Shown here piece after piece: positions 1 to 23,377 of a stretch of DNA of 26,472 nucleotides. Made by a program: the position numbers and the translations under genes. Under the pieces are notes generated by a model. The model did no database searches. It saw only the letters and a list, made by a program, of their open reading frames with translations, and was not told the origin of the DNA. The DNA is from a virus (Duplodnaviria > Caudoviricetes): IMG/VR virus record IMGVR_UViG_3300005805_009919, positions 1-26,472 of that record; one strand, written 5' to 3'. The number at the start of each line of letters is the position of its first letter. Positions within the stretch are counted from its first letter, which is position 1.

Positions 1-99
1 GTCTTCATCTTCCATGTCTTCATCTTCCATGTCTTCATCTTCCATGTCTTCGTCTTCCATGTCTTCGTCTTCCATGTCTTCGTCTTCCATGTCTTCCAT
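1..99. repeat. 15-bp tandem repeat (GTCTTCRTCTTCCAT x6 plus a 9-bp partial unit) encoding (MEDED)n on the minus strand
   Basis: Units at 1-15, 16-30, 31-45 have A at the variable site; 46-60, 61-75, 76-90 have G; partial unit at 91-99. The array may continue beyond the window. Confidence 0.95.
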
Positions 100-444
100 G
101 TCCTTAAAATGCTTCTTAGACATTTTGCCGCATTTATATCCACATTTTTTTGCACATCGGCTGCACATACCGTCTCCAGACTCACCTGAATCGCTTGAAG
201 AATCTGAAACACTTACTTCGATTTCATCATCAGAATTTTTGCCATCCGTTGTTGCTCCGCAACCGATCATTCTGGAATGAGCTTTTTTATTTTTCTTTTT
301 TTTCTTTTTTTTAGGCTTTTTGGCCTCTTCTAGATTTGATCCAAAAGGAGTGCTCATGCCGAGATTGGTTGGAGAAGATAAGCCTAGAACGTAACTAGGC
401 ATAACAGATTCGCTAATTAATTTCCATTGTTTGTATGAAATCAT
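1..444 (-). CDS. Partial (runs off the left edge) low-complexity protein with capsid-targeting-like leader, poly-Lys tract, Cys cluster and DMEDE acidic repeats; putative prohead core/internal protein
   Basis: Not in ORF track. ATG at 444 preceded by AGAGGA; open frame to position 1: MISYKQWKLISESVMPS...EEAKKPKKKKKKKNKK...CSRCAKKCGYKC...DMEDMEDEDMEDED. Confidence 0.85.
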   Translation of the reverse strand, partial: MISYKQWKLISESVMPSYVLGLSSPTNLGMSTPFGSNLEEAKKPKKKKKKKNKKAHSRMIGCGATTDGKNSDDEIEVSVSDSSSDSGESGDGMCSRCAKKCGYKCGKMSKKHFKDMEDMEDEDMEDEDMEDEDMEDEDMEDEDMEDED

Positions 445-473
445 AGATTCCTCTTACTATTAAAAGTTAACAA

Positions 474-481
474 TATATATG
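474..481 (-). promoter_or_regulatory. Putative T4-like late promoter box CATATATA
   Basis: About 30 nt upstream of ATG 444; fits the recurrent NNTANATA motif. Confidence 0.5.
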
Positions 482-559
482 TAAAGTTATCAAATTTTCC
501 ACATATTTGTTGATGTTAGTCAAATTTAAAAACAAAATTATCTACGAACTATTTTCAAG

Positions 560-1387
560 ATGAACAAAAAAATTTTATTTTTTTTAATATTTATTGGCTT
601 TGTTTTAATTTACGAACAAGTAAACAAAAAACAAAAAAAACCTTTTGTATATCTATCTCCTCAAGATCAAATATTAGAAGAAAAAGAAATTCCTCAAAAA
701 AATGATGGAATATCGCTGGTTGCTCATCTGAACCAGCAATTAACAAAGATTCATTCTGTTTATGATAAAAACTGTATCATTTATTTTAAACAAGGAAATA
801 GTCCAACTTTTAGAGTATTTGGTGAGTTAGCTATTGAAAAAGAAAAAAATTTTAGACTCGTAATTAGTCATCGTTTAACTGGCAAAGAAATGGATTTAGG
901 TTCTAATGACAAAGTTTTTTGGTTTTGGAACAAGCGTATGAACCCTCCAGTTCTGCATTTTTCCACTCATGTAAACCTCCATAAAACAAACTTAAAAACT
1001 GTATTAAATCCTATTTGGTTGATGGAATCGTTTGGCATCTTTCCAATCGATTTTAAAGATGCCGAAATTTCTAAGTATAAAGATTCCTGGTTTGTAAAAA
1101 CAACGAAGATTTCCTCGTCTGGTCAAAAAGTGAAATATGTCATTTTGATTAATCCCGTTTCTAAAAATATAATTGGAAGGTATTTATACAACGAAAAAAA
1201 TCAACTTTTTGCAAGTAGTGAATATCAAGAATTTGATGGAAGTTTAGCCAGAAAAATTACTTTTATTTGGTACGATGAAAACATAAACTTAGAAATTAAT
1301 TTAAATAGTTACCAAATAAATAAAGGCATCGATCCAAAATATTGGTCAATGCCTTTAAGTGAAAGTGCTATCGATATTGGGAATTAG
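560..1387 (+). CDS. N-terminally membrane-anchored protein, possibly LolA/DUF4292-like fold; resembles a Planctomycetota conserved protein
   Basis: MNKK followed by a hydrophobic stretch; the motif FRL...TGKEMDLGSNDKVFWFW...PP...H recalls planctomycete lipoprotein-like hypotheticals (from memory, not searched). Confidence 0.6.
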   Translation: MNKKILFFLIFIGFVLIYEQVNKKQKKPFVYLSPQDQILEEKEIPQKNDGISLVAHLNQQLTKIHSVYDKNCIIYFKQGNSPTFRVFGELAIEKEKNFRLVISHRLTGKEMDLGSNDKVFWFWNKRMNPPVLHFSTHVNLHKTNLKTVLNPIWLMESFGIFPIDFKDAEISKYKDSWFVKTTKISSSGQKVKYVILINPVSKNIIGRYLYNEKNQLFASSEYQEFDGSLARKITFIWYDENINLEINLNSYQINKGIDPKYWSMPLSESAIDIGN

Positions 1388-1623
1388 GATTGTTTTCGAT
1401 TCATTCTATTTTTGATTACTTGTCTACGCTCTGTTTGCAATCTTCTCTTCTCGGCACTTATTCCAGATGGATTGATATTCATCTGGGCGTTGAGACTTTG
1501 GACAGAGGCGGGTGCAGCTGGCCTTCTAACCGCCGAGCCAATTCTGTTGTTCATTGGGGTGCGTGGTGGTGTAGTTGACGATCTGCTTCCTTGCCGTTTA
1601 TTTTTGTTACATGAACATCCCAT
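1384..1623 (-). CDS. Small basic hypothetical protein beginning MGCSCNK (79 aa)
   Basis: Start reassigned from 1701 to ATG 1623, which is preceded by GAGGTG; Arg-rich. Confidence 0.75.
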   Translation of the reverse strand: MGCSCNKNKRQGSRSSTTPPRTPMNNRIGSAVRRPAAPASVQSLNAQMNINPSGISAEKRRLQTERRQVIKNRMNRKQS

Positions 1624-1630
1624 TTTCACC

Positions 1631-1807: not shown

Positions 1808-1808
1808 A

Positions 1809-3048: not shown

Positions 3049-3621
3049 ATGACATATCAGAATGGACCTATTTTAACTTCAAGTCAGAAGCAAATTTTAT
3101 ATGGAACAATTTTAGGAGGCTCTTCAATCATCAAGCCCGAAAGAGGTAAAAATTGCTACCTTGCTATGAGAGATTACGACTACGAATGGCTTTCCTACAA
3201 AATTGATTTGCTCAAAGACTTTTTCAAAGTAGACAAAAACACTATCAAAAAAGACAAAAACACCTTTCGGTGCTATAGTATTGCATTTCCAAGCTTCAAC
3301 GATCTTTATGATTCGTTTTATAAAGACGGAAAAAAGATTGTTAGCAAAGATGTCTTGGAAATTCTTACCGACGAAGCTTGGATGGTTTGGTTTGTCGATG
3401 CAGGAAGAAAAACGAAGCTCAAAGCTTACTTGAGAACTCATAAATTCGGAGAAGAAGGATCAAAAGCAATTGCGAATTATTTCAATTCTTTGGACTGCGA
3501 TTGTAATGTTCATCTTTGTCGCAAAAGATTTGAAATTGTATTTAACAACAAAGGTTGCAATGAACTTTTTAGCTATATTAAGCCTAAATTTCCGAAATTT
3601 ATCGCAGACAAATTTGATTGA
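3049..3621 (+). CDS. LAGLIDADG_2-type homing endonuclease-like protein, catalytic residues degenerate
   Basis: LTSSQKQILYGTILGGSSI (canonical ...GxLLGDG), F..LY..FY.DGKK.V, and AWMVWFVDAG (canonical LAxWFMDDG); SD AAGGAGG. Confidence 0.8.
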   Translation: MTYQNGPILTSSQKQILYGTILGGSSIIKPERGKNCYLAMRDYDYEWLSYKIDLLKDFFKVDKNTIKKDKNTFRCYSIAFPSFNDLYDSFYKDGKKIVSKDVLEILTDEAWMVWFVDAGRKTKLKAYLRTHKFGEEGSKAIANYFNSLDCDCNVHLCRKRFEIVFNNKGCNELFSYIKPKFPKFIADKFD

Positions 3622-3625
3622 ATTT

Positions 3626-3793
3626 TTAAGATTGGCATGAACCTGGACCACCACCTTGGCCACACTTTTTTACGCCACTAGCTTTTGGTTCACGAGTTGT
3701 CCTTGGTCCGGGTTTGCCAACGCTTGAAGTAGCTTTTCCCTTACTGAACCAAACTTCATCTAATTTTTTTAACCACTCTTTAAAATTAAGCAT
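3626..3793 (-). CDS. Small basic Gly-rich protein with capsid-targeting-like leader (55 aa)
   Basis: Not in ORF track: MLNFKEWLKKLDEVWFSKGKATSSVGKPGPRTTREPKASGVKKCGQGGGPGSCQS; CATAGATA box 4 nt upstream. Confidence 0.75.
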   Translation of the reverse strand: MLNFKEWLKKLDEVWFSKGKATSSVGKPGPRTTREPKASGVKKCGQGGGPGSCQS

Positions 3794-3797: not shown

Positions 3798-3805
3798 TAT
3801 CTATG
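3798..3805 (-). promoter_or_regulatory. Putative late promoter box CATAGATA, near-leaderless
   Basis: Lies 4 nt before ATG 3793 and just downstream of the terminator at 3814-3845. Confidence 0.5.
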
Positions 3806-4631: not shown

Positions 4632-4874
4632 CTAAGTCTTGGCTAATTTTCTGATTTCGCCCAAAGAAATTTTGACCTTAGGATCTCGCAAAATTCTTTC
4701 AACTAAATTCTTTCCTTGGCTAGAGGTCATTTTTTCCCAAGCAAATTTTCTAGTTCCAAGACCAAATTCGTCAAAAGCTTTCCTTAGATTATCAAACAAG
4801 GTCTCGACAGCGTCAATTTTGTTGCTGCTTCTGTCTTTTCCCTCGTCCAGTCTAAATTCTTTAAAAGATTTCAT
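4632..4874 (-). CDS. Small protein with capsid-targeting-like leader (80 aa)
   Basis: Begins MKSFKEFRLDE; AAGGT SD; TCTAAATA box at 4894-4901. Confidence 0.85.
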   Translation of the reverse strand: MKSFKEFRLDEGKDRSSNKIDAVETLFDNLRKAFDEFGLGTRKFAWEKMTSSQGKNLVERILRDPKVKISLGEIRKLAKT

Positions 4875-4968: not shown

Positions 4969-5142
4969 GTGGCAAAGAAAGATTTTTGGATTTTCTGGAA
5001 GAAGAAAGAAAAAACCTTTACTTCCGATCAGGTTAAGGAACTTCTCGACAAGGTTCGAGAGTTTAATGCTGGGGCTATCGATCCTTATCTAAACAAGCAT
5101 GTAGATAAGAAGTTCGATGAGTGGGCGCAAAAACATAAGTAG
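4969..5142 (+). CDS. Small hypothetical protein (57 aa)
   Basis: Not in ORF track: AAAGGAG SD, GTG start, MAKKDFWIFWKKKEKTFTSDQVKELLDKVREFNAGAIDPYLNKHVDKKFDEWAQKHK, followed by a terminator. Confidence 0.75.
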   Translation: MAKKDFWIFWKKKEKTFTSDQVKELLDKVREFNAGAIDPYLNKHVDKKFDEWAQKHK

Positions 5143-5239: not shown

Positions 5240-5584
5240 TTAATAACGACAGCAACAATACCAAGTGCCGTTTGCTGCCTGAGCGTATCCAACCTCTTTA
5301 GGGCTCATTTGCCTTCGGTAACAACAGTTCATTTCGGCTTGATGCGGCGTAGACCCACTTCCGCAACCTTCGTAGCCTCGATTGCCTCCAAAATGCCCTA
5401 CTCTACCGATTCTAGCCATAATATTGGCAACACCCTGAGCAGAAGATACTTCTCCTCCATAGTTTCCAGCTGCTCTAGCTTGACTGCTTGTCGTATAGCT
5501 TTGATGCCCTCTTCTTATTCTAGCCTCTACAGAGCAAGCCATAACGCTGAAGATAAGCCAAGAACAAACGAAAAGTCTTGTCAT
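5240..5584 (-). CDS. Small secreted Cys-rich protein, minimal CAP/SCP-like domain (planctomycete-like)
   Basis: Start reassigned to ATG 5584 (AAAGGA SD); signal peptide ending VEA; AQGVANIMARIGRVGH-GG..GYEGCG...CC...VGYA...GTWYCCCRY follows the CAP order helix-His-ExxG-G.A-WY. Confidence 0.65.
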   Translation of the reverse strand: MTRLFVCSWLIFSVMACSVEARIRRGHQSYTTSSQARAAGNYGGEVSSAQGVANIMARIGRVGHFGGNRGYEGCGSGSTPHQAEMNCCYRRQMSPKEVGYAQAANGTWYCCCRY

Positions 5585-5658: not shown

Positions 5659-7257
5659 TCAATCCAAGGAATTTAGAATCCACTCAAGTCCATCTTTTAA
5701 AGAATCGTTGTAAACCACTTCGTCCATAAAGGGGGAAAATATACGTGGAACATCAAATTTGTCGATGTTAAAAAAGCTTTCAAAACTGTGATAATCAGAA
5801 CTTAAAGATTTTTCAAAATACTTAACTGTTTCGATTTTTGCTGCTAAATACAATCTATCATCTTCTTCATAGATTCGAAATGCATTACGCAGTAAATTTC
5901 CCCCTGCGTGGAGGTCGTCAAAGTCGTAAAAGCCGATTAAATAATTTTTTAATAATCCGAAAAACTCAAGTTCATAACCAGATTTATATCCATCAGTAGA
6001 GGCTGATTGAAGCATACTCATAATTTCTGGGTCTGATTTGGCCATTTTTTCTAAGTCATCTTCATCAAAATCTTCGTCAAGCTTTTTTTCTGCAATTTTT
6101 TCAAGCAGCTCTTTATTTTCTGATTCAGCGTAACTCCTAAAGTTACTAAGAGCCTCAGAGTCGGGAACTGAAAAATCCATTTTATCTATGTCTAAATCGT
6201 TGAGATCTGGCAAGTGTTCGTGAAGATTTGTAATTTCTCTTAGAAAATTTTGAACAAAATCATAAAGAGAGTGTCCTCCTCGATTCAAAATGACTTCTTG
6301 GTTTTCTAGATCTAAATCTAACCTGACTGGATGATCAGAGTTCAATAAATCAGCCAATTTAACAAGACTTTCATTTTTATTTGTCGAATACAAGTTTAAA
6401 ATTGAACCAACATAATCATTTATGAAGGGATTCTTTTTCAATAAAACTTGCTGATTTTCAGGAGAAAGATCTGAAACCATAAAGTTGTTTTCAGGCTTAT
6501 ATCCGCCTCCTTTTATAAATTCAATAATAGGCTCTCCTTTCCAAGTTCCAAGCAGCAAAGCCATTATTTGAGGATGGAATTTAGAAGATGGCTTACCGTT
6601 ATCACGACCTTTGCTTTCTCCTAATTTACGATTATTAACGATAAACGTTAGATAAGCAGCTCCATCTGGTCCTCTTAATGAAAATATATTATCCCCAGGA
6701 CGACGGCCTACGTTGCCACAATGGCCCATAGCATCACCCTCCTGCTTGCAATATCCCCTGTTCAAACTCACCCAAGTCCATCCAGAAGGCATGCCATCTA
6801 AAGGAACTATCTCCCCCTCCGCAGGTTGGGGACGCTTGGATACCTTTAATCTCTCATGATACTCCTCGTTATCCCTCGACATTTCCTCAGGGCTGTACTC
6901 CAAAGAATTTAACTTTTTCTTGAATTCACTCCAATGATTGTTTGATTGATACATGATAAAATCTCGAAAATGATTAATAGTATCACGAACTTCTCTTTTG
7001 GCCTCTGCAGTTTGCAAATTAGTCAAGACAATCGACGTTGGTGAAAACAATTCTGGATCTTTTTTTATCTTCCAAAAAAGAAATAACTTAGCCAAAGAGT
7101 CTTTAATGTCTTGTCTTAGCTGAAAAGACTGATTTATTATTTCTTTTATTTCTTTTGATAAAAATTGAACGTTTTCTACAGATGAAATTTTGCGATCTTT
7201 TAAATATTGTGTAACGGTTGATTCTTCTAATAGCCACTCTTTGAATAACAATTGCAT
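5659..7257 (-). CDS. 532-aa protein with capsid-targeting-like leader and a central PcfJ-like domain
   Basis: Begins MQLLFKEWLLEE; EGDAMGHCG...IFSLR...YLTF...ESKGRDNGKP at about 6550-6790 matches the PcfJ pattern EG..M.HC / SLR / KG..N..P. Confidence 0.7.
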   Translation of the reverse strand: MQLLFKEWLLEESTVTQYLKDRKISSVENVQFLSKEIKEIINQSFQLRQDIKDSLAKLFLFWKIKKDPELFSPTSIVLTNLQTAEAKREVRDTINHFRDFIMYQSNNHWSEFKKKLNSLEYSPEEMSRDNEEYHERLKVSKRPQPAEGEIVPLDGMPSGWTWVSLNRGYCKQEGDAMGHCGNVGRRPGDNIFSLRGPDGAAYLTFIVNNRKLGESKGRDNGKPSSKFHPQIMALLLGTWKGEPIIEFIKGGGYKPENNFMVSDLSPENQQVLLKKNPFINDYVGSILNLYSTNKNESLVKLADLLNSDHPVRLDLDLENQEVILNRGGHSLYDFVQNFLREITNLHEHLPDLNDLDIDKMDFSVPDSEALSNFRSYAESENKELLEKIAEKKLDEDFDEDDLEKMAKSDPEIMSMLQSASTDGYKSGYELEFFGLLKNYLIGFYDFDDLHAGGNLLRNAFRIYEEDDRLYLAAKIETVKYFEKSLSSDYHSFESFFNIDKFDVPRIFSPFMDEVVYNDSLKDGLEWILNSLD

Positions 7258-7288: not shown

Positions 7289-7298
7289 AGTATATAGA
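7289..7298. promoter_or_regulatory. Putative bidirectional late promoter (palindromic TATATA core)
   Basis: AGTATATA on plus and TCTATATA on minus, centred between the divergent starts at 7257 and 7329. Confidence 0.45.
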
Positions 7299-7328
7299 TG
7301 AAACTTGCCGTTTATTTTTGAGGTGAAA

Positions 7329-10300
7329 ATGACTATTGAAGACATGCTTTCTGGCCTGAATGCAAATTTTTCTCAAGTAACTGATTTGATTCCAAACAAA
7401 TTTAATTTTGCAGATGAACCTGATATTGATAATTTTACTCTAAGGATTTTAGGAAACTTTGTAACCGAGTTATCAGATGGAAAAATAATATGGGCAGGAA
7501 AAACTGAATTACGAGCTTATAATTCAGACAATAACGAAACCGTATATTTACAAAACATCCTAAAATATAACAAAAATGGAACCATCGATACTTCTTTTTC
7601 GCCCCCAACATTTACTGGTGGCCCTTCTGGATTTGTTCGATCGATTGCTGAACAAAGCGATGGCAAATTAGTCGTTGGTGGCCATTTCACAAAAGTTAAC
7701 GGAATTACAGTAAATTATATTTGCAGATTAAACGCCGATGGATCTGTTGATGAAACATTTAATACGGGTGAAGGCTTTAACAACAGTGTGCTTTCAATAG
7801 GTTTGATTTCGGATGATTCGATTTTTGTAGGTGGGATTTTTACAGACTTTGATGGAAATGCGGCAAATTATCTTGTTAAGCTAAATTCAGATGGAAGTTA
7901 CAGCTCAGATTCTGCAAATGTTGAAGCAGTCCCATTAGATAGTACTGTACACATTGTCAAAATTACTGCATCAGACAAAGTTTTGGCAGGTGGTCAATTT
8001 ACCGGAAAGATAAAGTGCTACAATGACGATGGAACTGAAGAAGCAGGATTTGTAATAGGAAACGGATTTGCAGAGCCTAACAACAATCCTTCTAATGCTA
8101 GAGTAAATGATTTTGCTTTACAAGATGATGGCAAAATACTTGTTGCTCATTGGTTCAAGGAATACAATGACGTTCCTATTTCAGTTGGGCTTACAAGACT
8201 AAATTCTGATGGAACACTAGATGATTCTTTTCATTTTTTCCATGGAGACACAAAAACAATCAGTGGAATTGCCACTTCAAGCGGAGGATCAACTTTAGTT
8301 ACATGCACAGCCCATGCTTTATCTACAGGAGATATCATTTCTGTTTCTGCTTCTGATTCTGTTCCCGATATCGATGGATACTGGGAAATCACTTATGTTT
8401 CTGATGACGAATTTTCAATTCCTTTTAGCGAAGTAGTCACCGCAGGAACAACTGGCACGATTCTTAAAGCTGAAGGCTTCGCAAATTCAGATACTGCTGA
8501 TTGGCGAAACCAAGCACCACAAGCAATCGCAGTCCAAAGTGATGGCAAAATAATAGTCGGGGGTTGGTTCGAGGAATTTGACGGTAATCCTCAAAATTAT
8601 TTAGTAAGACTTAATGATGATGGTTCCTTTGATGGTACTTTTGATGTAGCCGATAAGTTTTTAAAGGTGGGAGATGAAAAACGTATTCAAGACATTTATG
8701 TTGATGAATCTAACAATATTTGGTTGGCTCATGATTTAAGAATTTATGACGGTAATTTTTCAGATGGTCTCACAAAAATCGATTCTACCGGTGATTTTTT
8801 GGAAATTGATTTAATCACATCTGTAGATCGGGATGGTTTGAGTTGGGAAAATCCCTGGGTTCATAAAATTCTACAGCAAGATGATGGAAAAATAATTGTT
8901 TGTGGAGCAGAATCTCGTCAAGACGGATTTAAAGGAATTCGCAGACTAAATTTAGATGGATCTGAAGACACCACTTTCGGTCCTGTGCATGTGAACGCAA
9001 TGATACGTAAAGCAGATTTTCAAAATGATAAAATAATTATTGCTGGCGACTTTACTCAAGTTCATTCTCGATCCTGCAAATACATAGCCCGATTAAACTC
9101 CGATGGAAGCCTTGATGAGACTTTTAATATCACAACTGGCGTAGACGGAACAATTTATGCTTTAAAAGTTTTATCAAATGATAAAATATGGATAGGCGGT
9201 GGATTTAGTCAATTTGGAGACGTGCCCATTAGCTATGCTTGTAAACTTACAGCCGATGGAGATTTGGATTTAAGCCCAATTTTTTTAAACATAAATAATA
9301 TAGTCCACGTGATTGAAGAAGACGCAGATGGCAAAGTTCTTATCGGAGGGCAGTTCGAAGCTTCTCCAATAAGTATCTCTAACGTCGCTACCTCTGTTGG
9401 GTCCACAACTGAAATTACCTTAGCATCAAATCACAATTTAGATTCAGGTGCTTACGTTTACATTGAAGACTCTGCTTCTGAACCACCAGTAGACGGCATT
9501 TGGGAAATTTCAAATGCTTCTGGAAATTCATTTACAATTGATCTTGACACGGTCACTGTTAGCAACTCAGGCGGTACTTTCTACTCATATCCACATAATT
9601 ATTTATTCCGTTTAAATGCAGATGATACGGTTGACACAGATTTTCTTGTAAGCACTTTTAACAATAGCGTCGGCAACAGTCCACGTGTAAGCTCGCTTGG
9701 TATTCAAGATGATGGAAAAATTATCCTTGGACATTGGTTTGAAGCATACGGAGTAAACCAAAGCAAATATCTTACCCGTGTAAATGCTGATGGATCTTAC
9801 GATAGTTCTTTCGAACAAGAAGGAACAGGCTTGTCTGCATCCTATGGCGGAACCATGGCAGTCAGCTTAGATCAAAATGGAAACGTTTATGCTGGAGGAT
9901 TTTATGAAACTTACGATGGCAACCCACAACACCTTCTCGTAAAATTTAATGATGATGGAACGAAAGATAATTCTTTTGATGTAGGAATTGGATTCGATGA
10001 AAATTTTAATGGTAATCCAAGAATTATGGATCTCCTCACTGATGGCGAAAATGTTTATGTTGCTGGAAATTTCAGCATTTACAAACAAGATATTCGCTGG
10101 AATCTAATTAAGCTAGATGCATCAGGTGATTTAATTTCAAATTACAAGATGCCCTTGCCGTATAAAACTTATGGCATTAGCAATTCTAATAATGACATGT
10201 TTGATGGTGGTCATTATATTCATACAAACCTTACCCAAACATTTAGTTTACATCAAAAAGATAGATCTAATGTTTATACCTCAGTTGCAAATACGCATAC

Positions 10301-13606: not shown

Positions 13607-14344
13607 ATGTCAAAAATACAATTAATACAAGGCGACTGTCTAGAAAAACTAAAAGATATTCCTGATGCCAGTGTCGATCTTGTTTTGACAAGCCCTCCCT
13701 ATAACATGAATCTAAGAATAAGAAACGGAAAGTATTGCTCTCGTCAAATTATAAAAGAATTGTCCACAAAGTATGAACGATATGATGATAACCTGCCCAT
13801 GCAAGAATATTACGAATTTAATCGCAAAGCAATAAAAGAACTACTTAGAATTTCAGATCTTACATTCTATAACGTACAATTCCTGACAGGCAATAAATCA
13901 GCCCTCTTTCAACTAATAGGTGAATTCCATGATAAAATAAAAGAATTCATCATCTGGGATAAAATAAACGCACAACCAGCTATTCGTGATAAAGTACTAA
14001 ATAGCAGATTCGAAGTAATCATCGTTTTTCAAAATTTTGAAGGAGAATCAAGACGATTCAAAACAGCTCAATTCCAAAGAGGTACACTCCAAAATTTATG
14101 GCAAATAAAACGTGGAACAAAGGTGTCCAATTCGCATGGAGCCGTCTTTCCATTAGAACTAGCAGAACTCGTTGTCGCAAATTTTACCAAAGAAAATGCT
14201 ACAGTCTTGGATCCATTCATGGGAACCGGAACCACAGGTGTAGCCTGTAAAAATCTAAACAGAAATTTTATCGGAATCGAAATAGATCCCGAATATTATA
14301 AAATAGCTGAAATGAGAATCAACGAAAATCAATCCGATCTCTAA
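13607..14344 (+). CDS. Beta-class N4-cytosine/N6-adenine DNA methyltransferase
   Basis: GDCLE, VDLVLTSPPY (motif IV), HGAVFP and VLDPFMGTGTT (motif I), FIGIEID, in beta order; SPPY favours m4C. Confidence 0.95.
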   Translation: MSKIQLIQGDCLEKLKDIPDASVDLVLTSPPYNMNLRIRNGKYCSRQIIKELSTKYERYDDNLPMQEYYEFNRKAIKELLRISDLTFYNVQFLTGNKSALFQLIGEFHDKIKEFIIWDKINAQPAIRDKVLNSRFEVIIVFQNFEGESRRFKTAQFQRGTLQNLWQIKRGTKVSNSHGAVFPLELAELVVANFTKENATVLDPFMGTGTTGVACKNLNRNFIGIEIDPEYYKIAEMRINENQSDL

Positions 14345-14430: not shown

Positions 14431-15603
14431 ATGTACTTAGAAAATATCGACGGAAAACTCAAAAGCCAAGAAGTCAAGATCAAGTACGATTGCGATGGCG
14501 GCTTCGATATGTGCGGCCAAGAACGGATGCTTAAGCTAAGATACGCAGAAAAGAACTTCCAAGACAACCAAGGAAAACATATCTGCCGCAAATGCTTCAT
14601 GACCTTCAAAAATCCGGGCAAAAAAGAAGAAGTCAAACAAAAAATCAAAAAGACTAATCTTGAACGCTATGGCTCAACGATGCCGGTGAATCAAGAACAT
14701 CTCATCGAGCAAAGAAGAGAGCAATTCAAAAATCCAGAGTTCAAAGATCAGTGGGTGGAAAAACACAAAATTACGGCCCAAAAAAAATATGGCGTAGATC
14801 ATCCCATGAAAACTGAGGAAGTCAAGAAAAAACAACAGGAAAGCTTGATGCAAAATCACGGAGTCGATGTTCCTCTCAAGTCAGAAAAAATCAAAGCAAA
14901 AGCCAAAAAGACGATTCAAGAAAAATATGGCGTAGACAACGTTGCTCAAGTGCCCGAGATTAGATCGAAAATGGCAAAAACGACGCTAGAAAGATATGGC
15001 GTTGAGCACTACAACCAATTGCCTGATATGAAAGATTATTTGCGAGAAAATTGCAGGGAATGGCTGGCTGAATCTTGGAAAAATCCTTGGTCTAAAGGAA
15101 CCAAAAGACCAGAAGAGTGGAATCAAAAGCAAAGCGAATCCATTACGAAACGAATCTTGGCGGGAGATCTTAATCCTGAGGACAAACGTTTTTTTGTGAC
15201 AGGCTGGTACAGTAGCACCAAATGCAAGAAATCAAGAGCTTTCTTTCGATCTAGCCTTGAGTTGACGATGCACTATATTTTAGACACAGACAATAATATT
15301 GCTTGGTACGAAAATGAGCCTTTTGCGATTCGCTACGAAAAATCTCCCGGCATAATTAGAAATTATATTCCAGATTTTTTTGCTTTCAGATTCAACGGAA
15401 TTCCTCTTTTGGCAGAAATTAAACCAGCTTTTAGATTGAGAGAAAAAGAGGTAGAATATAAAATAACAGCCGGAGAAAAATTTTGTCAGGAAAATGGATT
15501 CGAGTTCATTTACATTGACGAAAATTACCTTGCTAAACGAAACCTTGATTTACAAACCTTAAAAACTTTGCCACGAGTCGAAATTTGTCAAGCAAGAAAA
15601 TAA
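14431..15603 (+). CDS. Free-standing TnsA-like PD-(D/E)xK endonuclease with N-terminal Zn-finger and K.T.LERYG repeats; putative homing endonuclease
   Basis: C..C/CRKC at the N-terminus; five T(N/A/I/T)..(R/K)(Y/H)G(V/S) repeats; C-terminal RSSLE...ENEPFAI.Y...YIPDFF...AEIKP with catalytic residues intact. Confidence 0.8.
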   Translation: MYLENIDGKLKSQEVKIKYDCDGGFDMCGQERMLKLRYAEKNFQDNQGKHICRKCFMTFKNPGKKEEVKQKIKKTNLERYGSTMPVNQEHLIEQRREQFKNPEFKDQWVEKHKITAQKKYGVDHPMKTEEVKKKQQESLMQNHGVDVPLKSEKIKAKAKKTIQEKYGVDNVAQVPEIRSKMAKTTLERYGVEHYNQLPDMKDYLRENCREWLAESWKNPWSKGTKRPEEWNQKQSESITKRILAGDLNPEDKRFFVTGWYSSTKCKKSRAFFRSSLELTMHYILDTDNNIAWYENEPFAIRYEKSPGIIRNYIPDFFAFRFNGIPLLAEIKPAFRLREKEVEYKITAGEKFCQENGFEFIYIDENYLAKRNLDLQTLKTLPRVEICQARK

Positions 15604-15684: not shown

Positions 15685-17118
15685 CTAAATCACAAAATTT
15701 GCGATCGAGAGGCGACCATAGAACTTGGCACCCTCACGGAGTAGTTTCTTGCCGTAGCGGGTCATGATACCCTTACGTGGGCAGAAGCTCTCGGGGTCAA
15801 GTACTACTGGAGTCTGTGTGAGTGGCACGTATGGGCAGTAGAAGTAACCGCTGTCCATATAAGAATCACCCTTGTAGCCCATCAAGATCTGGCTTGTGGG
15901 GAATAGAGGATCCTTGTATAGTCTCCAACGATTGTTTACTGTGCCAACGTACTGGATGCCTAAGCTGCTGGTGAATGTCTCGCTTGGAGCGGGAGCAAAA
16001 CCTGCAGTAGCTGTCTCGAAGATCGAAGCGATTTCGGGGCTGGTGACAAGCCAGTTGGCACCACCACGAAGCGTCTTACGATGGATAACGTTCGAAACCT
16101 CAACAACCTTGACGTATAGAGACTCATACTTTTCTTTGATGGTTTCACCAAGAGCTGTGTTGAAGTCCCAAGCGGAAACAGTACCGGCATTATTTAGAAG
16201 ATCGGTGATAACCTCACGATCGATTTCCAAATTGATTTCCTGAGCTAGAACGGCTGTTAGCTCGGCCTCTGCATCCAGATTGTGCTGGCTGCGTAGATCC
16301 TGCTGAGCCTCATAGCTCCAGACTGCCTTCAGCTTACGAGTTACGGCTGCAATTTCCTGGCTCTCGATTACGAGGTTAACCTCGGGGAGATCCTGATTGC
16401 ACTCCATGTTGTACTCGTAAGAAACGACAACCTTAACAGCACCGTCAGTTGTGCCACTCCAGTTGAGGGTAAGAACGCCGCTGCTGTAAACGAGCTCAGA
16501 GGAAGTCTGAACTGTAGGGCTGGGCGAACCAATTGCGCTCAATACTAGTGAACCATCGGAAGCAACAGTGAATGTATAAACGGCTACGTTGTTATCATAA
16601 ATTGTGCCTGTGACAGTACCGGCTAGAACTGGTGTGTGCTCTAGGTTGAAAGTCGAGGTTGTGCCCTGTGCAACTTCCTGGCTCTCATTCTGAACGAACT
16701 GATGAGAATAGAAGATGCTCAGATTTGCAGTACCATCGGCTCTCTGCATTAAGCTGTTTGCGTCATCACCGGGGAATCCGCTGTTGTTATCAGCACCACG
16801 GATAGAACCCTTGTTGCTGGAATAACGGAATCGGAGGTAATAAACTAGGCCAGTTGGGCCAAGTAGTGGCTGAACGCTGACAATTTTGTTAGCGATTAGC
16901 TGTGGGTAGATACGGCGGACGAGGGGGATGCTGATTCTCTTGAACTGAGCAACATCACCACTGTCGGTTGAGACTTCGTTGATGAGTCTCTGGTTCTCTA
17001 GAAGAACCGCTGTGGCAGAACGAACATAACGGTCATCAATACCTTCGAGGAGTCCCGTCTTGCCCCAACGAGTTTCTAGCTCTTTTGCCTCGTTTAAAAA
17101 TTTTGAATTTACGTTCAT
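15685..17118 (-). CDS. gp23: Major capsid protein, T4 gp23-like
   Basis: TAVLLENQ, IPLVRR.YP.LIA..IVSVQP..GPTGL, TRKLKA.WS.E..QDL...H.LDAEAEL..L..EI..EIDRE, GYKG..D.G.FYCPYVPL, F.PRKGIMTRYG. Confidence 0.97.
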   Translation of the reverse strand: MNVNSKFLNEAKELETRWGKTGLLEGIDDRYVRSATAVLLENQRLINEVSTDSGDVAQFKRISIPLVRRIYPQLIANKIVSVQPLLGPTGLVYYLRFRYSSNKGSIRGADNNSGFPGDDANSLMQRADGTANLSIFYSHQFVQNESQEVAQGTTSTFNLEHTPVLAGTVTGTIYDNNVAVYTFTVASDGSLVLSAIGSPSPTVQTSSELVYSSGVLTLNWSGTTDGAVKVVVSYEYNMECNQDLPEVNLVIESQEIAAVTRKLKAVWSYEAQQDLRSQHNLDAEAELTAVLAQEINLEIDREVITDLLNNAGTVSAWDFNTALGETIKEKYESLYVKVVEVSNVIHRKTLRGGANWLVTSPEIASIFETATAGFAPAPSETFTSSLGIQYVGTVNNRWRLYKDPLFPTSQILMGYKGDSYMDSGYFYCPYVPLTQTPVVLDPESFCPRKGIMTRYGKKLLREGAKFYGRLSIANFVI

Positions 17119-17154: not shown

Positions 17155-18051
17155 TTATTGGGTCTTTTTTAGACCTGATAAAACGAGTAGTTGATCTACA
17201 TCGTTGTTAACAGGTGCTGCATATTCCGATATGACAACACCGTCATCGGCCTTATTACCTCTCCCCGTTACGTTCGTTGCTTTCTTAGTTCTTTCTTTCT
17301 GTTCATTGATCATTTCGCTCTTTCTTTCTTTAACAACAGCTTTTCGGCTTTCTGTAATGAGATCCTGAGCATTTCGAACTGCTTCGTTTAGCTTGGTATT
17401 CTCCGTAGAGAGACGAATATTTCGTGCTTCTAGAATCCTCATCTGGGACTTTACTTCGTCTACTGTCTTAAGAGCTTCGTCTAATTTCTTAGAAGAAACA
17501 GGTGATACAGAGTCATCTGATAGATAGTTAGAAGTTAGATCTACGATCTTGTCGAGAGTAACTTTGTGTTCGATCAAACGAGGATCGCTGAGAACGTCTT
17601 TCTTGGCTTGCTCATAAATTTCCTGACCTTTAAACTGTAGGAACTGATGAACTTTATCAACAATGTATTCTTTCATTTCGGCCAATTTCTTGTCATACTC
17701 TTCATACATTTCAACTTCGAGTTTCTGATTCTTTTCTCTTTCTTGCTTTAGCATCTGATATGCTTCTTCGTAACCTTCCTCAAGGGCTTCTTTATATTCT
17801 TCGCCCTGGATTTCGAGACGGTTGCGAAGATCGTTGATGATTGAATAAGCTTCCTCGTAGCCCTCTTCTGCGAGCTTTTCTGCGTTCACTAACTCAGAAG
17901 AAATTTCCGTGTAAGCCTCTTCAAGCTTCTGGTTGTATTCGGCTTCTAATTCTGTCTTGGCTTCATCGAGCATCTCAGTGATAGCGGTTGCTACCTCATT
18001 GATCTCAGCTTCGGGCAAGAGCTTTTTTAGCGCTTCTACGATCTTGTCCAT
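17155..18051 (-). CDS. gp22: Prohead core scaffolding protein, T4 gp22-like
   Basis: Acidic coiled-coil protein directly upstream of the MCP and downstream of the protease; multiple L/I-x-E sites; GAGG SD. Confidence 0.8.
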   Translation of the reverse strand: MDKIVEALKKLLPEAEINEVATAITEMLDEAKTELEAEYNQKLEEAYTEISSELVNAEKLAEEGYEEAYSIINDLRNRLEIQGEEYKEALEEGYEEAYQMLKQEREKNQKLEVEMYEEYDKKLAEMKEYIVDKVHQFLQFKGQEIYEQAKKDVLSDPRLIEHKVTLDKIVDLTSNYLSDDSVSPVSSKKLDEALKTVDEVKSQMRILEARNIRLSTENTKLNEAVRNAQDLITESRKAVVKERKSEMINEQKERTKKATNVTGRGNKADDGVVISEYAAPVNNDVDQLLVLSGLKKTQ

Positions 18052-18080: not shown

Positions 18081-18179
18081 TTTATTGTTATTCCGACCAA
18101 AAAAGCAAATACATCTTTTGTTTTTTTAGTGCAGATACATAATATAAGTATGCACATGGTTTTATTTTTGAGAAATAAA

Positions 18180-19169
18180 ATGAAAAAAAAGTCACAAGAA
18201 GAGGTAAAAAATTTATTTGCTGAACATGGATGTGAATTGTTGGATAAGTATTTAGGTTCTGGTTTTTCTATGAAATACATATGTGTTTGTGGTGCAACTA
18301 AGTCAATTAGCCTTGATAAATTTCAGAAAAAGATTAAAAAAGGCAAAGTGGTTTGCGATAAGATCAATTGGACAGAAGAAAAAGATCAAATTTTACGTGA
18401 TTTGTATGGCAATTCGACTAGAAGCGAAATGCTCTCAAAAATTTGCGGATCTACTTATGAATCAATAAAACATAGAGCAAAAGTACTAAATCTCATCGGA
18501 AACAGAAGCCGCGTAATTTCTGAAGCAAGAAAGAACCAAAAGCCAAAATATGATTACAATATTAATTTTTTTGGGAACAAAACACGACAGTCAATATTTT
18601 GGGCTGGATTCTTAGCTTCTTGTTGTAGGATAGATTATAAAAAAAATACCATTTGTATTTCTTTACCGCTAGAAAATCAAGATATTCTCGAAGCTTTTCA
18701 GGATGCAATTTGTCATACAGGTGTTTGTAGCAAAACAAAATCAAGAGTTAAGCTTAATATTTTTAGAGCAAAAAAGTGGCTTTTAGATTTAGACAATTTA
18801 TTTAATTTGAATTTAAAAAGTCCTTCAGAAAGATTTAGTCCTTATCAGTTAAAAGATGCAGAAATACTTGTTTTTGCGGCTGGATATTTAGAAGGTGCAG
18901 GAAAAATCCGATACCATGCAAAAGAAAAAAAATTCAGATTAATTTTCTGTGGATCGGAGGAAATTTTAAATTGGTTAAAAATTTATTTTGATGAATTGTG
19001 TCCAAGTTTAAAAAAACCTTACTTGGAAATTGAAAAGCAAAAGTGTAATTTGTTTTTTTATAAGTTGGGATATTCTAAATCAAAATACTTAATTAAACAA
19101 ATAATTTCGCTAAAATTATCAAGATCAGAAGAAAAATGGCGATCGATCAAATTCATATTAGGAGTGTGA
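18180..19169 (+). CDS. LAGLIDADG-fold protein with N-terminal Zn-ribbon and Myb/HTH-like segment, catalytic residues degenerate
   Basis: GCELL..Y....MKYICVCG; WTEEKDQILRDLY; NFF....SIFWAGFLASCC (canonical YWLGFLxADG); FAAGYLEGAG (canonical FIRGYFDGDG); GSEEILNW. Start 18180 preferred over 18129. Confidence 0.8.
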   Translation: MKKKSQEEVKNLFAEHGCELLDKYLGSGFSMKYICVCGATKSISLDKFQKKIKKGKVVCDKINWTEEKDQILRDLYGNSTRSEMLSKICGSTYESIKHRAKVLNLIGNRSRVISEARKNQKPKYDYNINFFGNKTRQSIFWAGFLASCCRIDYKKNTICISLPLENQDILEAFQDAICHTGVCSKTKSRVKLNIFRAKKWLLDLDNLFNLNLKSPSERFSPYQLKDAEILVFAAGYLEGAGKIRYHAKEKKFRLIFCGSEEILNWLKIYFDELCPSLKKPYLEIEKQKCNLFFYKLGYSKSKYLIKQIISLKLSRSEEKWRSIKFILGV

Positions 19170-19741: not shown

Positions 19742-20326
19742 CTAAAGGTCACTAGCCGATAGCCTTAAAGACAACCATTCTCCAAAACTTTGTTGGTTTA
19801 AGGCATTGGGGTATCTAAATTTACTTTGTCTGATAGGTTTCCCTAAAAGAATGAATTCAATTTCTCTCATTGGTTCGCCATATAAAGAAGTTGGTTCATC
19901 CATCAATATTTTTAAATATCCTCTTTTTTCTGCACTTCTTATCATTGGATACGAAGTAGTGGATCGAGCGTTCATTTCAAAAACTTTGTTTCCGAAACTT
20001 AACAGCTTTGAATACAAGATTTGAAAGTCAGTAAAACTTAATTTTCTTATAGATGCGAGATCGATGATTTCCACCGTCTGATCGCCAACTCCAAAAATAG
20101 CATACCAATCAGGCTGAATAATGCAATCAATTTCGTTTTCTTCATACCCAGCAAGATCTAACATCTGTTCAAAAGAAGCTCGCCAATCATCTTCGTTTTC
20201 GTCATCTTGCCAAAATTGCATATGAGGCGGATAAATTTTTTTTTCTAAATCTTGCACATGACGAAGATTTGCTTGATTGAACGCACAAGCTTCCAGCAAA
20301 TTATAAAGTTCATAAAATGTTTTCAT
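19742..20326 (-). CDS. Protein with capsid-targeting-like leader, possible degenerate GNAT fold (194 aa)
   Basis: Start reassigned to ATG 20326 (MKTFYELYNLLE); L..V..LE..IYP, VEIIDLAS, VFEMNAR..SY, GY.I order resembles RimI-like GNAT, but no Q/RxxGxG loop. Confidence 0.6.
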   Translation of the reverse strand: MKTFYELYNLLEACAFNQANLRHVQDLEKKIYPPHMQFWQDDENEDDWRASFEQMLDLAGYEENEIDCIIQPDWYAIFGVGDQTVEIIDLASIRKLSFTDFQILYSKLLSFGNKVFEMNARSTTSYPMIRSAEKRGYLKILMDEPTSLYGEPMREIEFILLGKPIRQSKFRYPNALNQQSFGEWLSLRLSASDL

Positions 20327-20403: not shown

Positions 20404-21084
20404 TTAAAGCTTGTCTTTGATCTCTTTGGTTCGAGATTCAATCATCCCTCCTAAACAAGCCAAAAGAGCTTCTTTAGAAAAAGATTTCTGTGATGATGAT
20501 CTCGTCGCAGCAGGAGCATCGTGACGATAGGTAACAGCAGGATCAAAGCTTTCCTTTTTGGAGACTACTCTCTCTTGAAAAGCATTGAAAGTACTTGGAT
20601 CAGCAACAGCATCAAAAGTAATTAATTTGTAACTTTCGCCAATTACTAGAATGCCATTTTCATCACTTCTACCATTTCCTACTCCTCGGCTGCTGATTCC
20701 AACTCTTACTCCATCATTTAGCAGACTCTTCAAAAGCTTGCCATAAGGAGTGTTTAGAATTTCGCCTTCGCCCATCAATTGATTGCCTTCCCACCATAGT
20801 TTTGTAACTACATGAGAGCAACGATCAAAATGGATTATAGAGTCGGTAGGATGGTCAAGTTCGCCCACCAAACCACGAGCTTCTATAATTGGAGTCAATT
20901 TCTTTACATTTTCATTTAGAACATTATACGGGTAAATACGCTTATTTTGGTTGACTGCTTCGGCCTCTTGAAACTTGCCTCTAAAACGAGTCAGCCCTCG
21001 ACTATTTTCGGCTGACTCATTTAGATTCAAGGTAAATCCACCGTTTGTACAGCAGTCAATGAACAAACTTAGTTTCTCATCCAT
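20404..21084 (-). CDS. gp21: Prohead protease, T4 gp21-like
   Basis: G.FQ.A...N.N.R.Y, GELDHP (catalytic His), ILNTP.G, VGISSRG.G (catalytic Ser), TFDAVADPS; AAGGAG SD. Confidence 0.95.
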   Translation of the reverse strand: MDEKLSLFIDCCTNGGFTLNLNESAENSRGLTRFRGKFQEAEAVNQNKRIYPYNVLNENVKKLTPIIEARGLVGELDHPTDSIIHFDRCSHVVTKLWWEGNQLMGEGEILNTPYGKLLKSLLNDGVRVGISSRGVGNGRSDENGILVIGESYKLITFDAVADPSTFNAFQERVVSKKESFDPAVTYRHDAPAATRSSSQKSFSKEALLACLGGMIESRTKEIKDKL

Positions 21085-21120
21085 TGACTTACTCCTTCTA
21101 GTGTAAATTTAAAAGCCGAC

Positions 21121-22869
21121 TTAACCCTTCTTATGTGGAACATAAGGATTTTTTAAGTTTGGCCATGTATCTTCTGACTGCCATAGACCCCAATCTTCGT
21201 TGTCGTCTATAACTGATTTTTCCTTCATCTTGTAATCAGCATTCTTTAGATTGTAAGGATTGGTTAGAGATGGATAGGTGTCGTTGTTTCCAATGTTACC
21301 ATGGCCATGATCTTTTAGCTCGGCAGAAAGTGCTTTGCTATAGGTTTTACCGTCAGAACTTGGAGCCATTCCATCGAAATCACCATTAAATTTAGAGGGA
21401 GTTGCATCGCTTTGTTTTGCAATCCAATCTAAATGAGGATGAGCACCATTTACCGTGTGGTGAACTGATGCATTTGTCGCATCCCAACCTTCAGAGGAAG
21501 CCATTGGTAGATTGTTTTCAATAAAATCTACTAGATAATCTGTCATTTCTTCAATCGATTCGAGATTGATAGTTGCTTCTTTTCTGAGCATAGAAGCACA
21601 CTCATTCAAGAAATTCTCTGCATGGGATTTGGTCATCTCATCGCCAGATTCAACAGCTAAACGATGAATCTCATGTATGGCCTTATAAAGATCTGCAACC
21701 ACCTGAAGCTCAGATTCAATCGTTTCGTCAAGAGTTAAATAGTAGTCTTCAATTATTGATTGAAATTCTAAATATGCATCCTCACAAGATTCACATGTAG
21801 GAGAAACGTCGTGAGTGGCACCTGCTGCCTTGGCAATTTTCTGAACTTTTTCTACGTGCGTATTGTGAGCAGTTCGTAAAATTGCTTCTGCCATGAACTG
21901 ACACATTTCATCGTCATAATTACTTACATTTGCAATTTCTAAAGCCTCTCTAATTTGAGTTGCGAGCTCTGTCTCGGTTACATAAAGAACAGATGGCCAT
22001 TTAGAGACAACTGCGGCAAGAGTTTCTTCAAGAGCAATATTATCTACAACATTGTTATATCTCTTAAGATCCGCCATCATTTTCACAAAATTCTGGTTCT
22101 CTTGTAGCTTTTTGGCTGTGCTTCTTAGCACTTTGGATTCAGCGCTCATACACTTCCAATCAAAGCTTAAAACTTTGGCCTCGTTTCTTTTGTCAAGAGT
22201 TGGCATGGCAATACCACTTACATTTCCTTTGCCATCAAATTTTACTCGTGATTGTGCTGCTACGGGGCCGAATGCCTTATAGTCTAGATATCCATAAACA
22301 TTTTCACACAAGCCAGCCCATTCTTTTACCATCATTGGCTTCATTTTTTTTGCATAGAACTGCACTGTTGCTTTCTTGCCCTTAGCACCTTTTTTACCTT
22401 TAGCTCCTTTTCTCTTAGATCGTAGGAACGCCATGAATGCAGCCTGATCTTTTTTGCTTTTATGCTTTTTAGCCTCATTTACGTTCACTGCACGGCGGTA
22501 AATTGAAGAATTGATAAACTGTTCGAACTGTTGTTCTGCTTTGACTTGATTATCTTCCAAAAGCGAATCAATAAAATTATCAAGAAGAGTTCTTGATGCA
22601 ATTTGTTCTGTTGATTCCTCGATGACTAACTGTTCGATGTTTTCTAGAACCAATTGTTCTTTATCCAAGGAATAAACGGCATGAATAAATGTGCCGTCTG
22701 GAGCTTGATAATTTACATCTGATTCACCAAAAGTAAAAAGCTTAAGGTCTTCTACTCCTAAAGTTTTGGACAGCACTTCCTCAGCTGCAATCAATTCATT
22801 TTGAGCTTTCGTAAGTGACGCTTCTTCAATTTTTTTAAAAACATCGAAGCTGATTAATTTTCTTTTCAT
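21121..22869 (-). CDS. Large uncharacterised head-module protein (about 582 aa), probable prohead core component
   Basis: Between portal and protease (the T4 gp67/gp68 position); ATG 22869 with GGGAG SD; leader MKRKLISFDVFKKIEE; KGAKGKK x2; DT(Y/W)PxLxNPY x2. Confidence 0.7.
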   Translation of the reverse strand: MKRKLISFDVFKKIEEASLTKAQNELIAAEEVLSKTLGVEDLKLFTFGESDVNYQAPDGTFIHAVYSLDKEQLVLENIEQLVIEESTEQIASRTLLDNFIDSLLEDNQVKAEQQFEQFINSSIYRRAVNVNEAKKHKSKKDQAAFMAFLRSKRKGAKGKKGAKGKKATVQFYAKKMKPMMVKEWAGLCENVYGYLDYKAFGPVAAQSRVKFDGKGNVSGIAMPTLDKRNEAKVLSFDWKCMSAESKVLRSTAKKLQENQNFVKMMADLKRYNNVVDNIALEETLAAVVSKWPSVLYVTETELATQIREALEIANVSNYDDEMCQFMAEAILRTAHNTHVEKVQKIAKAAGATHDVSPTCESCEDAYLEFQSIIEDYYLTLDETIESELQVVADLYKAIHEIHRLAVESGDEMTKSHAENFLNECASMLRKEATINLESIEEMTDYLVDFIENNLPMASSEGWDATNASVHHTVNGAHPHLDWIAKQSDATPSKFNGDFDGMAPSSDGKTYSKALSAELKDHGHGNIGNNDTYPSLTNPYNLKNADYKMKEKSVIDDNEDWGLWQSEDTWPNLKNPYVPHKKG

Positions 22870-22926
22870 AATCAATGACTCCCTGTGCTGTTGTTTTCAT
22901 TTGCTTAAATAATGCTGCAATGTGTT

Positions 22927-22992
22927 TATCTATTAAACACCTGCTAAATTTTGTTATAAATATCGAAAAAATATTTTACCCGCTAATATATA
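22927..22992. promoter_or_regulatory. Divergent late-promoter-like boxes: AATAGATA (minus, 22927-22934), TATAAATA (plus, 22955-22962), AATATATA (plus, 22985-22992)
   Basis: Read directly in the intergenic region between the divergent starts at 22869 and 23027. Confidence 0.5.
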
Positions 22993-23026
22993 GCTATGTA
23001 TTCAATAGTAAAATTAAGGAATTAAA

Positions 23027-23377
23027 ATGAAAAGTTTTCAAGACTATTTAGTATTAAAAGAAGACACTGGCCGTGCGGTAGCTCAAAATATGATAGATTT
23101 TCAACAAAGTCTATCTGGGATTGAAAGTGAGAATTTAATTGCTTTTATTAAAGCGGCTTATAAAATTCTAACTAACGAAGACAATAAGGCTTCTCAATTT
23201 ATACAAATGGTCAGCAGATTTTCAGGCGAATCAGAATTAAATTTAAATCGGTCTGCTTTAATTTCAGCTGCCAAGAAATTAATAGATTCTAGTTCAGGCA
23301 CGCCGGGTCTAGGAGATCAAACTGGCTCTGCAAATGAAATTACACCACCACCAGCCGATAAAATGGGTAGTTTCTAA
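23027..23377 (+). CDS. Small protein with capsid-targeting-like leader (116 aa)
   Basis: Begins MKSFQDYLVLKE; AAGGA SD; inverted relative to the head genes. Confidence 0.85.
   Translation: MKSFQDYLVLKEDTGRAVAQNMIDFQQSLSGIESENLIAFIKAAYKILTNEDNKASQFIQMVSRFSGESELNLNRSALISAAKKLIDSSSGTPGLGDQTGSANEITPPPADKMGSF

Follow-up and report, generated by a model that had tools for sequence, protein, structure and literature searches.

A shared N-terminal leader in and around a T4-type head module

We analysed a window of 26,472 bases, the entire contig of the viral record IMGVR_UViG_3300005805_009919, from an uncultured giant phage of the T4-like kind, which carries a T4-type head module made up of an intein-bearing portal gene, a gene of 582 amino acids (aa), a gp21-like protease, a scaffold and a gp23-like capsid protein. 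In and around this module, several genes begin with a short peptide, hereafter the leader, with the consensus M-x1-3-F-x-E/Q/D/N-W/F/Y-hydrophobic, followed by a Glu a few residues on. The leader occurs specifically at gene starts, is conserved at the protein level rather than the RNA level, goes together with an upstream TAnATA box, and matches the N-termini of the T4 internal proteins IPI-III. A first-pass annotation of the window had read it as a capsid-targeting sequence, and this reading is well supported because of the N-terminal specificity, the match to the T4 capsid-targeting sequence (CTS), the T4-type protease together with L/I-x-E sites found in both the scaffold and the capsid protein, and virion data from the cultured phage Atu_ph07.

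The first-pass annotation flagged seven genes, named here by start position and strand, and all seven N-termini are present where it placed them. Gene 444- (1..444, minus strand) encodes an acidic low-complexity protein and runs past the contig end. Further genes on the minus strand are 3793- (3626..3793, 55 aa), 4874- (4632..4874, 80 aa, from a small conserved family), 7257- (5659..7257, a 532-aa PcfJ-like protein), 20326- (19742..20326, 194 aa, between protease and scaffold) and 22869- (21121..22869, the conserved 582-aa head-module protein in the gp67/gp68 position). The seventh, 23027+ (23027..23377, plus strand), encodes 116 aa and is divergent from the core gene. The flagged genes thus lie in both orientations, also within the head module, and their bodies are unrelated, the best pair among the seven reaching only E 0.023.

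The surrounding head genes all lie on the minus strand. The gp20-like portal (23627..26158; PF07230, PF14890) has its intein at about residues 109-337 and bears no leader (score -13). The prohead protease (20404..21084; Peptidase_S77, PF03420, E 1e-22) aligns with the His, Ser and Asp motifs of T4 gp21, which we take to be catalytic. The gp22-like scaffold (17155..18051) was assigned from position and composition, with no family match above the cut-off, and the gp23-like major capsid protein (15685..17118; PF07068, E 8e-88) has conserved protease-type sites near its N-terminus. Its closest GenBank counterpart is in LR756511.1, a 595-kb uncultured phage (75.5% identity); the remaining 2,596 records all fall below 60%.

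The leader is a peptide specific to gene starts

We compared the window with the complete LR756511.1 sequence (LR756511 below; loci L081-L092), with the best 80 of 381 IMG/VR loci that surround related capsid genes, and with the 323-kb contig G001. A position-specific scoring matrix (PSSM) was trained on candidates that a pattern shaped on the first-pass finding had drawn from the IMG/VR loci; these were clustered by body, and the 65 clusters used have no blast link to the candidates of the window or LR756511. Six of the seven flagged starts score between 8.3 and 18.6 bits (444-, 8.3; 3793-, 17.6; 4874-, 10.3; 7257-, 15.4; 20326-, 9.3; 23027+, 18.6). The seventh, 22869-, which also fails a looser pattern, scores 2.1 bits and was rejected as a member of the leader class; the claim of a shared leader therefore stands for six genes. 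Probable remote homologues of 23027+ and 4874- lie inside the training set, so the scores of these two are not independent.

The first-pass annotation had suggested such a profile and a scan for N-terminal enrichment, and the scan bears its expectation out. In the window, scores of at least 8 bits occur at 6 of 29 gene starts and at 0 of 92 internal methionines (p 1e-4). At a threshold of at least 10 bits, LR756511 has 30 hits among 1,831 near-start methionines versus 0 among 1,849 internal ones, and the IMG/VR loci, the source of the training set, have 160 among 1,900 versus 0 among 4,057. G001 has 26 among 841 first methionines versus 0 among 768 deep ones, with 5 of the 26 inside a stretch that overlaps a training locus. 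As a control, the T4 proteins IPI (8.8 bits), IPII (9.5) and IPIII (8.9) came out on top of 17 T4 genes, the remaining 14 scoring -0.3 or less.

The leader codons use TTT 58 times and TTC 35 times for Phe, GAA 36 and GAG 17 times for Glu, six codons for Leu, and both codon boxes for Ser; since synonymous codons vary like the background, selection acts on the peptide. Membrane segments are predicted in 0 of 99 non-redundant tagged (leader-bearing) proteins versus 177 of 1,975 others.

Leader-like aromatic-x-Glu-Trp words were also seen at C-termini, in the window at 19742-19800 (-) and 4969-5142 (+) and elsewhere at L091:38200-39228 and L002:12721-13416, some of these proteins bearing an N-terminal leader as well. 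The C-terminal excess is not significant (4 versus 10 interior, p 0.055), and we make no claim from it. Two homologues of the protein encoded at 5659-7257, P0010 and P0011, hold an internal leader copy where an N-terminal extension joins, as if two tagged genes had fused.

A protease-type motif is enriched in the leader

An L/I-x-E motif is present in all seven flagged N-termini of the window. Of the 99 leaders, 52 contain it; the corresponding counts are 8 for the 99 downstream windows and 389 for 1,975 other N-termini. With the broader form L/I/M/V/F/W-x-E these counts rise to 82, 13 and 573, respectively. The motif is thus enriched, not universal. Presumptive substrates of the head protease carry it too: in the scaffold, L or I stands two residues before 17 of 48 Glu (background 19%, p 0.006), as it does before 16 of 47 in T4 gp22. 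In the capsid protein, all 48 distinct N-termini conserve E10, E41 and E48; each also has Leu at the second position ahead of E10 and of E41, and 45 have Ile or Met before E48.

The TAnATA box is a general, probably late-type feature of the clade

The first-pass annotation gave each flagged gene its own upstream box. A TAnATA hexamer does lie within 70 nucleotides (nt) of 7 of 7 flagged genes versus 9 of 21 other window genes (p 0.0097); it is not specific to leader genes, and TAnATA is common in the window (85 matches, both strands). Distances to the start are 39 and 35 nt for 444- (two overlapping boxes, 474..483, minus strand), 10 for 3793- (3798..3803, minus strand), 25 for 4874-, 39 for 7257-, 53 for 20326-, 40 for 23027+ and 63 for 22869-, so that 20326- and 22869- have distant boxes only. 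The box of 7257- is a palindromic TATATA (7291..7296) between the divergent starts 7257- and 7329+.

In LR756511, 26 of 29 leader genes have TAnATA between -8 and -50, versus 132 of 980 others, and the joint occurrence of leader and box has p 4e-19. Among the 99 leader genes, the box lies at -10 to -14 in 46, at -15 to -55 in 28 and is absent in 25; a Shine-Dalgarno-like word accompanies 10 of the 46 and 24 of the 28. The peak at -10/-11 from the ATG in LR756511 (65 of 1,825 near-start ATGs) includes tagged and untagged genes alike. Of 65 LR756511 genes with a -10 box and a score under the threshold, 13 look tagged by eye and 52 do not; 19 Pfam hits among these 52 fall in glycan, methyl-transfer, fibre, nuclease and protease families, and none in RNA-repair or nucleotide-signal families. 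TAnATA is therefore a general, probably late-type feature of this phage clade. A family profile found a gp55-like sigma factor in 3 of 5 relatives; a phmmer search with T4 gp55 against the fetched loci gave no match, and the window carries no sigma gene.

In T4, the late box starts at position -13 relative to the transcription start (PMC2988020). By that measure, a hexamer at -10/-11 from the ATG would place the transcription start at the ATG itself and give a leaderless late mRNA. This suggests that leaderless late mRNAs may be a general trait of the clade. Within the window, 3793- is the candidate example: it has no Shine-Dalgarno word, and its box would start transcription at or next to the ATG.

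The proposal of promoter-plus-leader cassettes does not hold at the DNA level in the window. No DNA cassette is common to the window genes; identity among the DNA of five leaders aligned in register does not exceed 55%, and no direct repeats link the 5' regions among the 20 largest repeat families shown. Two relatives do hold repeated DNA: at L078:7934-13567 leaders are up to 91% identical and the box-to-ATG stretch is repeated before several adjacent genes, and at L060:14682-17108 box-plus-leader DNA is repeated in the same setting. These are recent duplications of the 5' module in those relatives. Genome-specific homogenisation of leaders was rejected as a general process, DNA identity being 0.456 within and 0.467 between genomes.

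In Atu_ph07 the leader marks virion proteins

Atu_ph07 is a cultured Agrobacterium jumbo phage of the T4 superfamily (490 kb), whose virion proteome is given in Table S5 of PMC6102473. Of 140 rows, 138 were mapped to open reading frames (ORFs) from their mass and position, probably with errors for a few small ones. A strict Atu_ph07 leader pattern, derived from the first 50 kb, finds 23 ORFs genome-wide and 0 of 1,249 deep methionines. Twenty-one of the 23 are in the virion list, the other two, 22449+ and 315526-, being unannotated in the record, and the base rate for virion membership is 140 of 714. The 23 ORFs fall into 11 clusters, of which 9 are virion and one consists of 13 paralogues. 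Six unrelated held-out singletons (gp381, 407, 487, 548, 561 and 672) are all virion-listed, with 2-17 peptides each and TAnATA at -25 to -37. Over the 193 kb held out, the looser pattern, fixed beforehand, matches 8 of 35 virion ORFs versus 19 of 379 others (p 8e-4); it also matches the six window leaders and the scaffold. These results support the conclusion that, in Atu_ph07, the leader means virion protein. The 13 paralogues comprise gp53-63, an array of leader-bearing virion proteins at Atu_ph07 39484-50592 (L140-L141), together with gp408 and gp482.

Window genes: apparent head parts and candidate cargo

The first-pass annotation treated all seven genes as modular cargo. Four of them are plausible as variable cargo (20326-, 7257-, 3793- and 4874-), and three look like fixed head parts (22869-, 23027+ and 444-). 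Gene 22869- has 69 blast hits in the loci and its own conserved N-terminus; among GenBank phages it matches LR756511 only (38.7%). It is likely a prohead core component and not modular cargo, its N-terminus being merely related to the leader. A divergent leader gene occupies the position of 23027+ in 39 of 52 loci, with 13 not called, and a hidden Markov model of their bodies matches 23027+ at E 3e-4. A complex prediction of scaffold with 23027+ scored 0.00, which argues neither for nor against an interaction. Homologues of 444- have 343 aa in LR756511 and 341 aa in G006 and keep both leader and acidic tracts, and 444- is likely, judging from these features, an internal core-type protein.

Both 20326- and 7257- are plausible as cargo, 7257- being a candidate of enzyme size. 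For 20326-, Atlas structure matches point to GNAT clusters (10 of 10 rows, template-modelling score 0.51-0.60); a GNAT fold is thus predicted, and the gene would be a sporadic insertion in the head module, with a single close homologue (78%) and none within the 80 loci or LR756511. A single-sequence AlphaFold2 model of this protein was unusable (pLDDT, the predicted local distance difference test score, 36). The AlphaFold2 model of 7257- has pLDDT 84, with residues 2-12 helical, and its BFVD hits are PcfJ-like proteins (E 8e-7, 2e-5 and 8e-4). Against the PDB it yielded nothing at E <= 0.001, and GNAT-type rows there (E 0.39 and above) were not relied on; for the family, searches of Pfam, of PDB sequences and, with Foldseek, of PDB structures likewise produced no significant hit. 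The family has 23 homologues, counting 7257- itself, and its distant members bear other leader forms. Gene 3793- has leader-bearing homologues in L029 and L055, and 4874- has 8 blast hits in the loci. The T4 internal proteins match phrog_4363, 7857 and 5341; no PHROG is matched at E <= 0.001 by any of the seven window proteins.

Tagged proteins in relatives include enzymes

In LR756511, 49 genes score at least 7 bits, each in a different cluster, with a median of 140 aa and 12 of 49 above 200 aa. We scanned 133 tagged proteins against Pfam, 119 cluster representatives and 14 added by eye from under the score threshold, and 21 had a hit. Eight of the 21 are RNA-repair or nucleotide-signal families: a CCA-adding enzyme, an RNA ligase, a HAD phosphatase, an AAA_33 kinase, two 2H phosphoesterases (one Acb1-like), a NUDIX protein and a NADAR protein. 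Acb1 and NADAR are counter-defence enzymes. Further tagged families are GNAT, C39 peptidase and phosphoribosyltransferase; CAP and 5'-3' exonuclease hits were set aside as probably false leader calls. On G001, 5 of 27 tagged proteins have a Pfam hit, namely two CCA enzymes, a kinase, a 971-aa SNF2 helicase and a DUF. In several tagged enzymes the Pfam domain starts at residues 16-28.

The leader also varies within enzyme families. The Acb1-like enzyme has a leader in L056 and none in L054 and L081, at ~50% identity. CCA-adding enzymes in 10 relatives comprise 9 genes, 7 of them distinct, with a leader in 5, a weak one in 1 and none in 1. Two distinct CCA-adding genes, both tagged or nearly so, were seen per genome in G001 (G001:C1:205666-206097 and 232394-232822), G002 and G005. 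The first-pass expectation of a diverse, enzyme-sized cargo set is thus supported in relatives, with their larger, enzyme-bearing set, and less well in the window, where three of seven genes look like conserved head-core parts.

Other genes of the window and a hint at its host

A 1,241-aa DUF5122 beta-propeller repeat protein, likely a surface fibre, is encoded at 7305-11030 (+) and has the palindromic box in common with 7257-. Three genes are homing-endonuclease-like: 3049-3621 (+), LAGLIDADG; 14431-15603 (+), DUF7487 plus TnsA-like; and 18129-19169 (+), with a weak HNH-associated match. Two of the three flank the scaffold-capsid pair on the opposite strand. An FkbM-family methyltransferase lies at 11050-11718 (-) and an N6/N4 DNA methyltransferase at 13607-14344 (+). 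All 10 genome matches of a small Cys-rich exported-type protein at 5240-5584 (-) fall in Planctomycetota, most of them in Pirellulaceae, and this single gene hints at a host in that group.

A capsid-targeting reading of the leader

The finding that 21 of the 23 Atu_ph07 leader ORFs are virion-listed makes it likely, in our estimate highly so, that tagged proteins are packaged. We also think it probable that the leader is a T4-type CTS and that, for at least part of the set, the whole chain of core docking, removal by the protease, retention in the head and partial ejection applies. Tagged proteins would be made late, from the TAnATA box. The helical leader would dock them on the prohead core, as in T4, and the gp21-like protease would cut after the downstream hydrophobic-x-Glu. 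The freed proteins would stay in the head, where 23027+ and 444- would represent a conserved core-type class; the variable class, with 20326-, 7257-, 3793- and 4874-, would be ejected with the DNA into the host, as suggested by T4 Ip1-3 and Alt.

Several observations weigh against this reading. Virion evidence comes from Atu_ph07 only, a distant T4-superfamily phage outside this clade, and its mass spectrometry speaks to presence in the virion, not to inside or outside, cleavage or ejection. Thirteen of the 21 Atu_ph07 virion hits belong to one paralogue family, most Atu_ph07 virion proteins carry no leader, and the Atu_ph07 leader itself differs, the clade PSSM giving it less than 3 bits. The strict L/I-x-E is absent from 47 of 99 leaders, and 20 of the 52 present use the Leu of the targeting motif. 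No TAnATA box lies within 50 nt of the ip genes in T4, so their regulation differs from that of the clade. Among the 133 tagged proteins, 112 have no Pfam hit, so a counter-defence function rests on a minority. Finally, some tagged proteins reach 950-1,076 aa, reportedly more than the ejected T4 protein Alt.

A different reading, in our view unlikely, accepts that the leader targets the prohead but takes its bearers for assembly parts, which would make up or fill the core and afterwards be broken down or retained, and not for effectors. The conserved place of 23027+ in head modules, the acidic, low-complexity, conserved character of 444- and the gp67/gp68 slot of 22869- agree with this, and T4 IPII and IPIII have long been linked to morphogenesis (PMC9026906). 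However, T4 Ip1-3 are injected inhibitors of the GmrSD nuclease (PMC12373910), and assembly parts would leave unexplained both the tagged CCA-adding enzymes, RNA ligase, HAD phosphatase, Acb1-like 2H, NADAR, NUDIX, kinases and SNF2 helicase and the gain and loss of the leader within one enzyme family. It is more improbable still that the leader is a degradation tag or a docking helix for some other late structure, such as the tail lumen, the baseplate or a replication or assembly compartment. The modelled short helix and the occasional copies at C-termini or within fused proteins would suit such a role, but the leader matches the genetically defined T4 CTS and has the head-protease Glu motif downstream, it is missing from the Atu_ph07 proteins annotated as tail, sheath and baseplate, and the C-terminal excess falls short of significance.

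We give very little credence to the idea that the motif is an RNA-level translation enhancer of leaderless late mRNAs, with the peptide a by-product. It draws on the many leader genes with a box at -10 to -14 and few Shine-Dalgarno-like words; yet synonymous codons are free to vary, the 28 leader genes with a distant box mostly have a Shine-Dalgarno-like word, and 52 LR756511 genes with the same -10 box bear no leader. Chance likeness among AT-rich, Lys/Phe/Glu-rich N-termini, to which the abundance of TAnATA in the window and the failure of 22869- might have pointed, is refuted by the zero counts at internal methionines in LR756511, the IMG/VR loci and G001 and by the joint occurrence of leader and box.

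Comparison with known systems

Capsid targeting by the leader would work like the T4 CTS. In T4, gp21 removes the CTS; its residues 4 and 7 target and residues 8 and 10 serve processing, and the internal proteins co-purify with gp22 (PMC9026906); the two targeting residues correspond to the two aromatic positions of the clade leader. Like IPI-III, the tagged proteins have aromatics at about positions 4 and 7, a downstream Glu and unrelated bodies, and diverse bodies are a feature of T-even CTS systems generally (PMC3012670, PMC12373910). The window also has T4-type portal, protease, scaffold and capsid genes, and the clade profile picks all three T4 internal proteins. What is new is the scale, the dispersion, the promoters, apparently late and often leaderless, and the putative enzyme cargo. 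A huge genome of the clade carries some 30-60 tagged genes, scattered over the two strands, versus three in two T4 loci, and these have a late-type box, often with a predicted leaderless arrangement. Their bodies include enzymes of up to ~1,000 aa, in contrast to the T4 internal proteins, which are nuclease inhibitors of 95-193 aa, and the window bodies are not Ip homologues. The cleavage motif of the clade seems relaxed, and conserved head-module genes are tagged too.

A precedent for enzyme-sized head cargo is T4 Alt, a packaged and ejected ADP-ribosyltransferase with a short N-terminal propeptide that is processed at both ends (PMC9026906). No ADP-ribosyltransferase family was found among 160 tagged proteins scanned, however, and the window candidates are GNAT-fold and PcfJ-like. 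P1 DarB with its packaging signal at the N-terminus, the phiKZ and SPN3US ejection proteins and the polyvalent proteins (PMC9024508, PMC9026906, PMC5512222) are likewise large head-loaded enzymes for early counter-defence, and the tagged 971-aa SNF2 helicase of G001 resembles them on the clade side. The P1 Dar proteins are described as having no common consensus signal (PMC9024508), whereas the clade has one short consensus on many separate genes; phiKZ-type propeptides share merely a cleavage motif.

A parallel in arrangement is Atu_ph07 (PMC6102473), in which dispersed, unrelated genes with a TAnATA box and a short, Glu-terminated leader encode virion proteins. It differs in being a distant T4-superfamily phage, and its own form of the leader is shorter; the passages and tables of PMC6102473 consulted are silent on the leader. 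A full-text search, with most subscription papers outside its coverage, found no account of a leader like this in T4-like phages of huge or jumbo size.

Implications for huge T4-like phages

We tentatively propose, as a possibility somewhat short of an even chance, that huge T4-like phages, the present one probably infecting Planctomycetota, preload 30-60 single-tag proteins that are ejected to disarm immunity before phage gene expression. The payload would comprise a tRNA/RNA repair kit (CCA-adding enzymes, ligase, kinase and phosphatases), Acb1-like and NADAR proteins, acetyltransferase folds and a SNF2 helicase. The RNA-repair and nucleotide-signal enzymes of the relatives would then blunt host defences ahead of phage gene expression. 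Because enzymes gain and lose the tag, the injected proteome would be readable from sequence alone.

Should the tag prove to be a head address, candidate injected proteins of uncultured huge phages could be listed with a one-line profile, and the Atu_ph07 outcome shows that such a prediction is checkable on existing virion data. On the same condition, it would widen the size range known for T4-type cargo, and known RNA-repair and nucleotide-degrading enzymes of phages would shift from 'made during infection' to 'delivered with the genome'. The 112 of 133 tagged proteins without a Pfam family would then be a direct, testable source of new counter-defence proteins.

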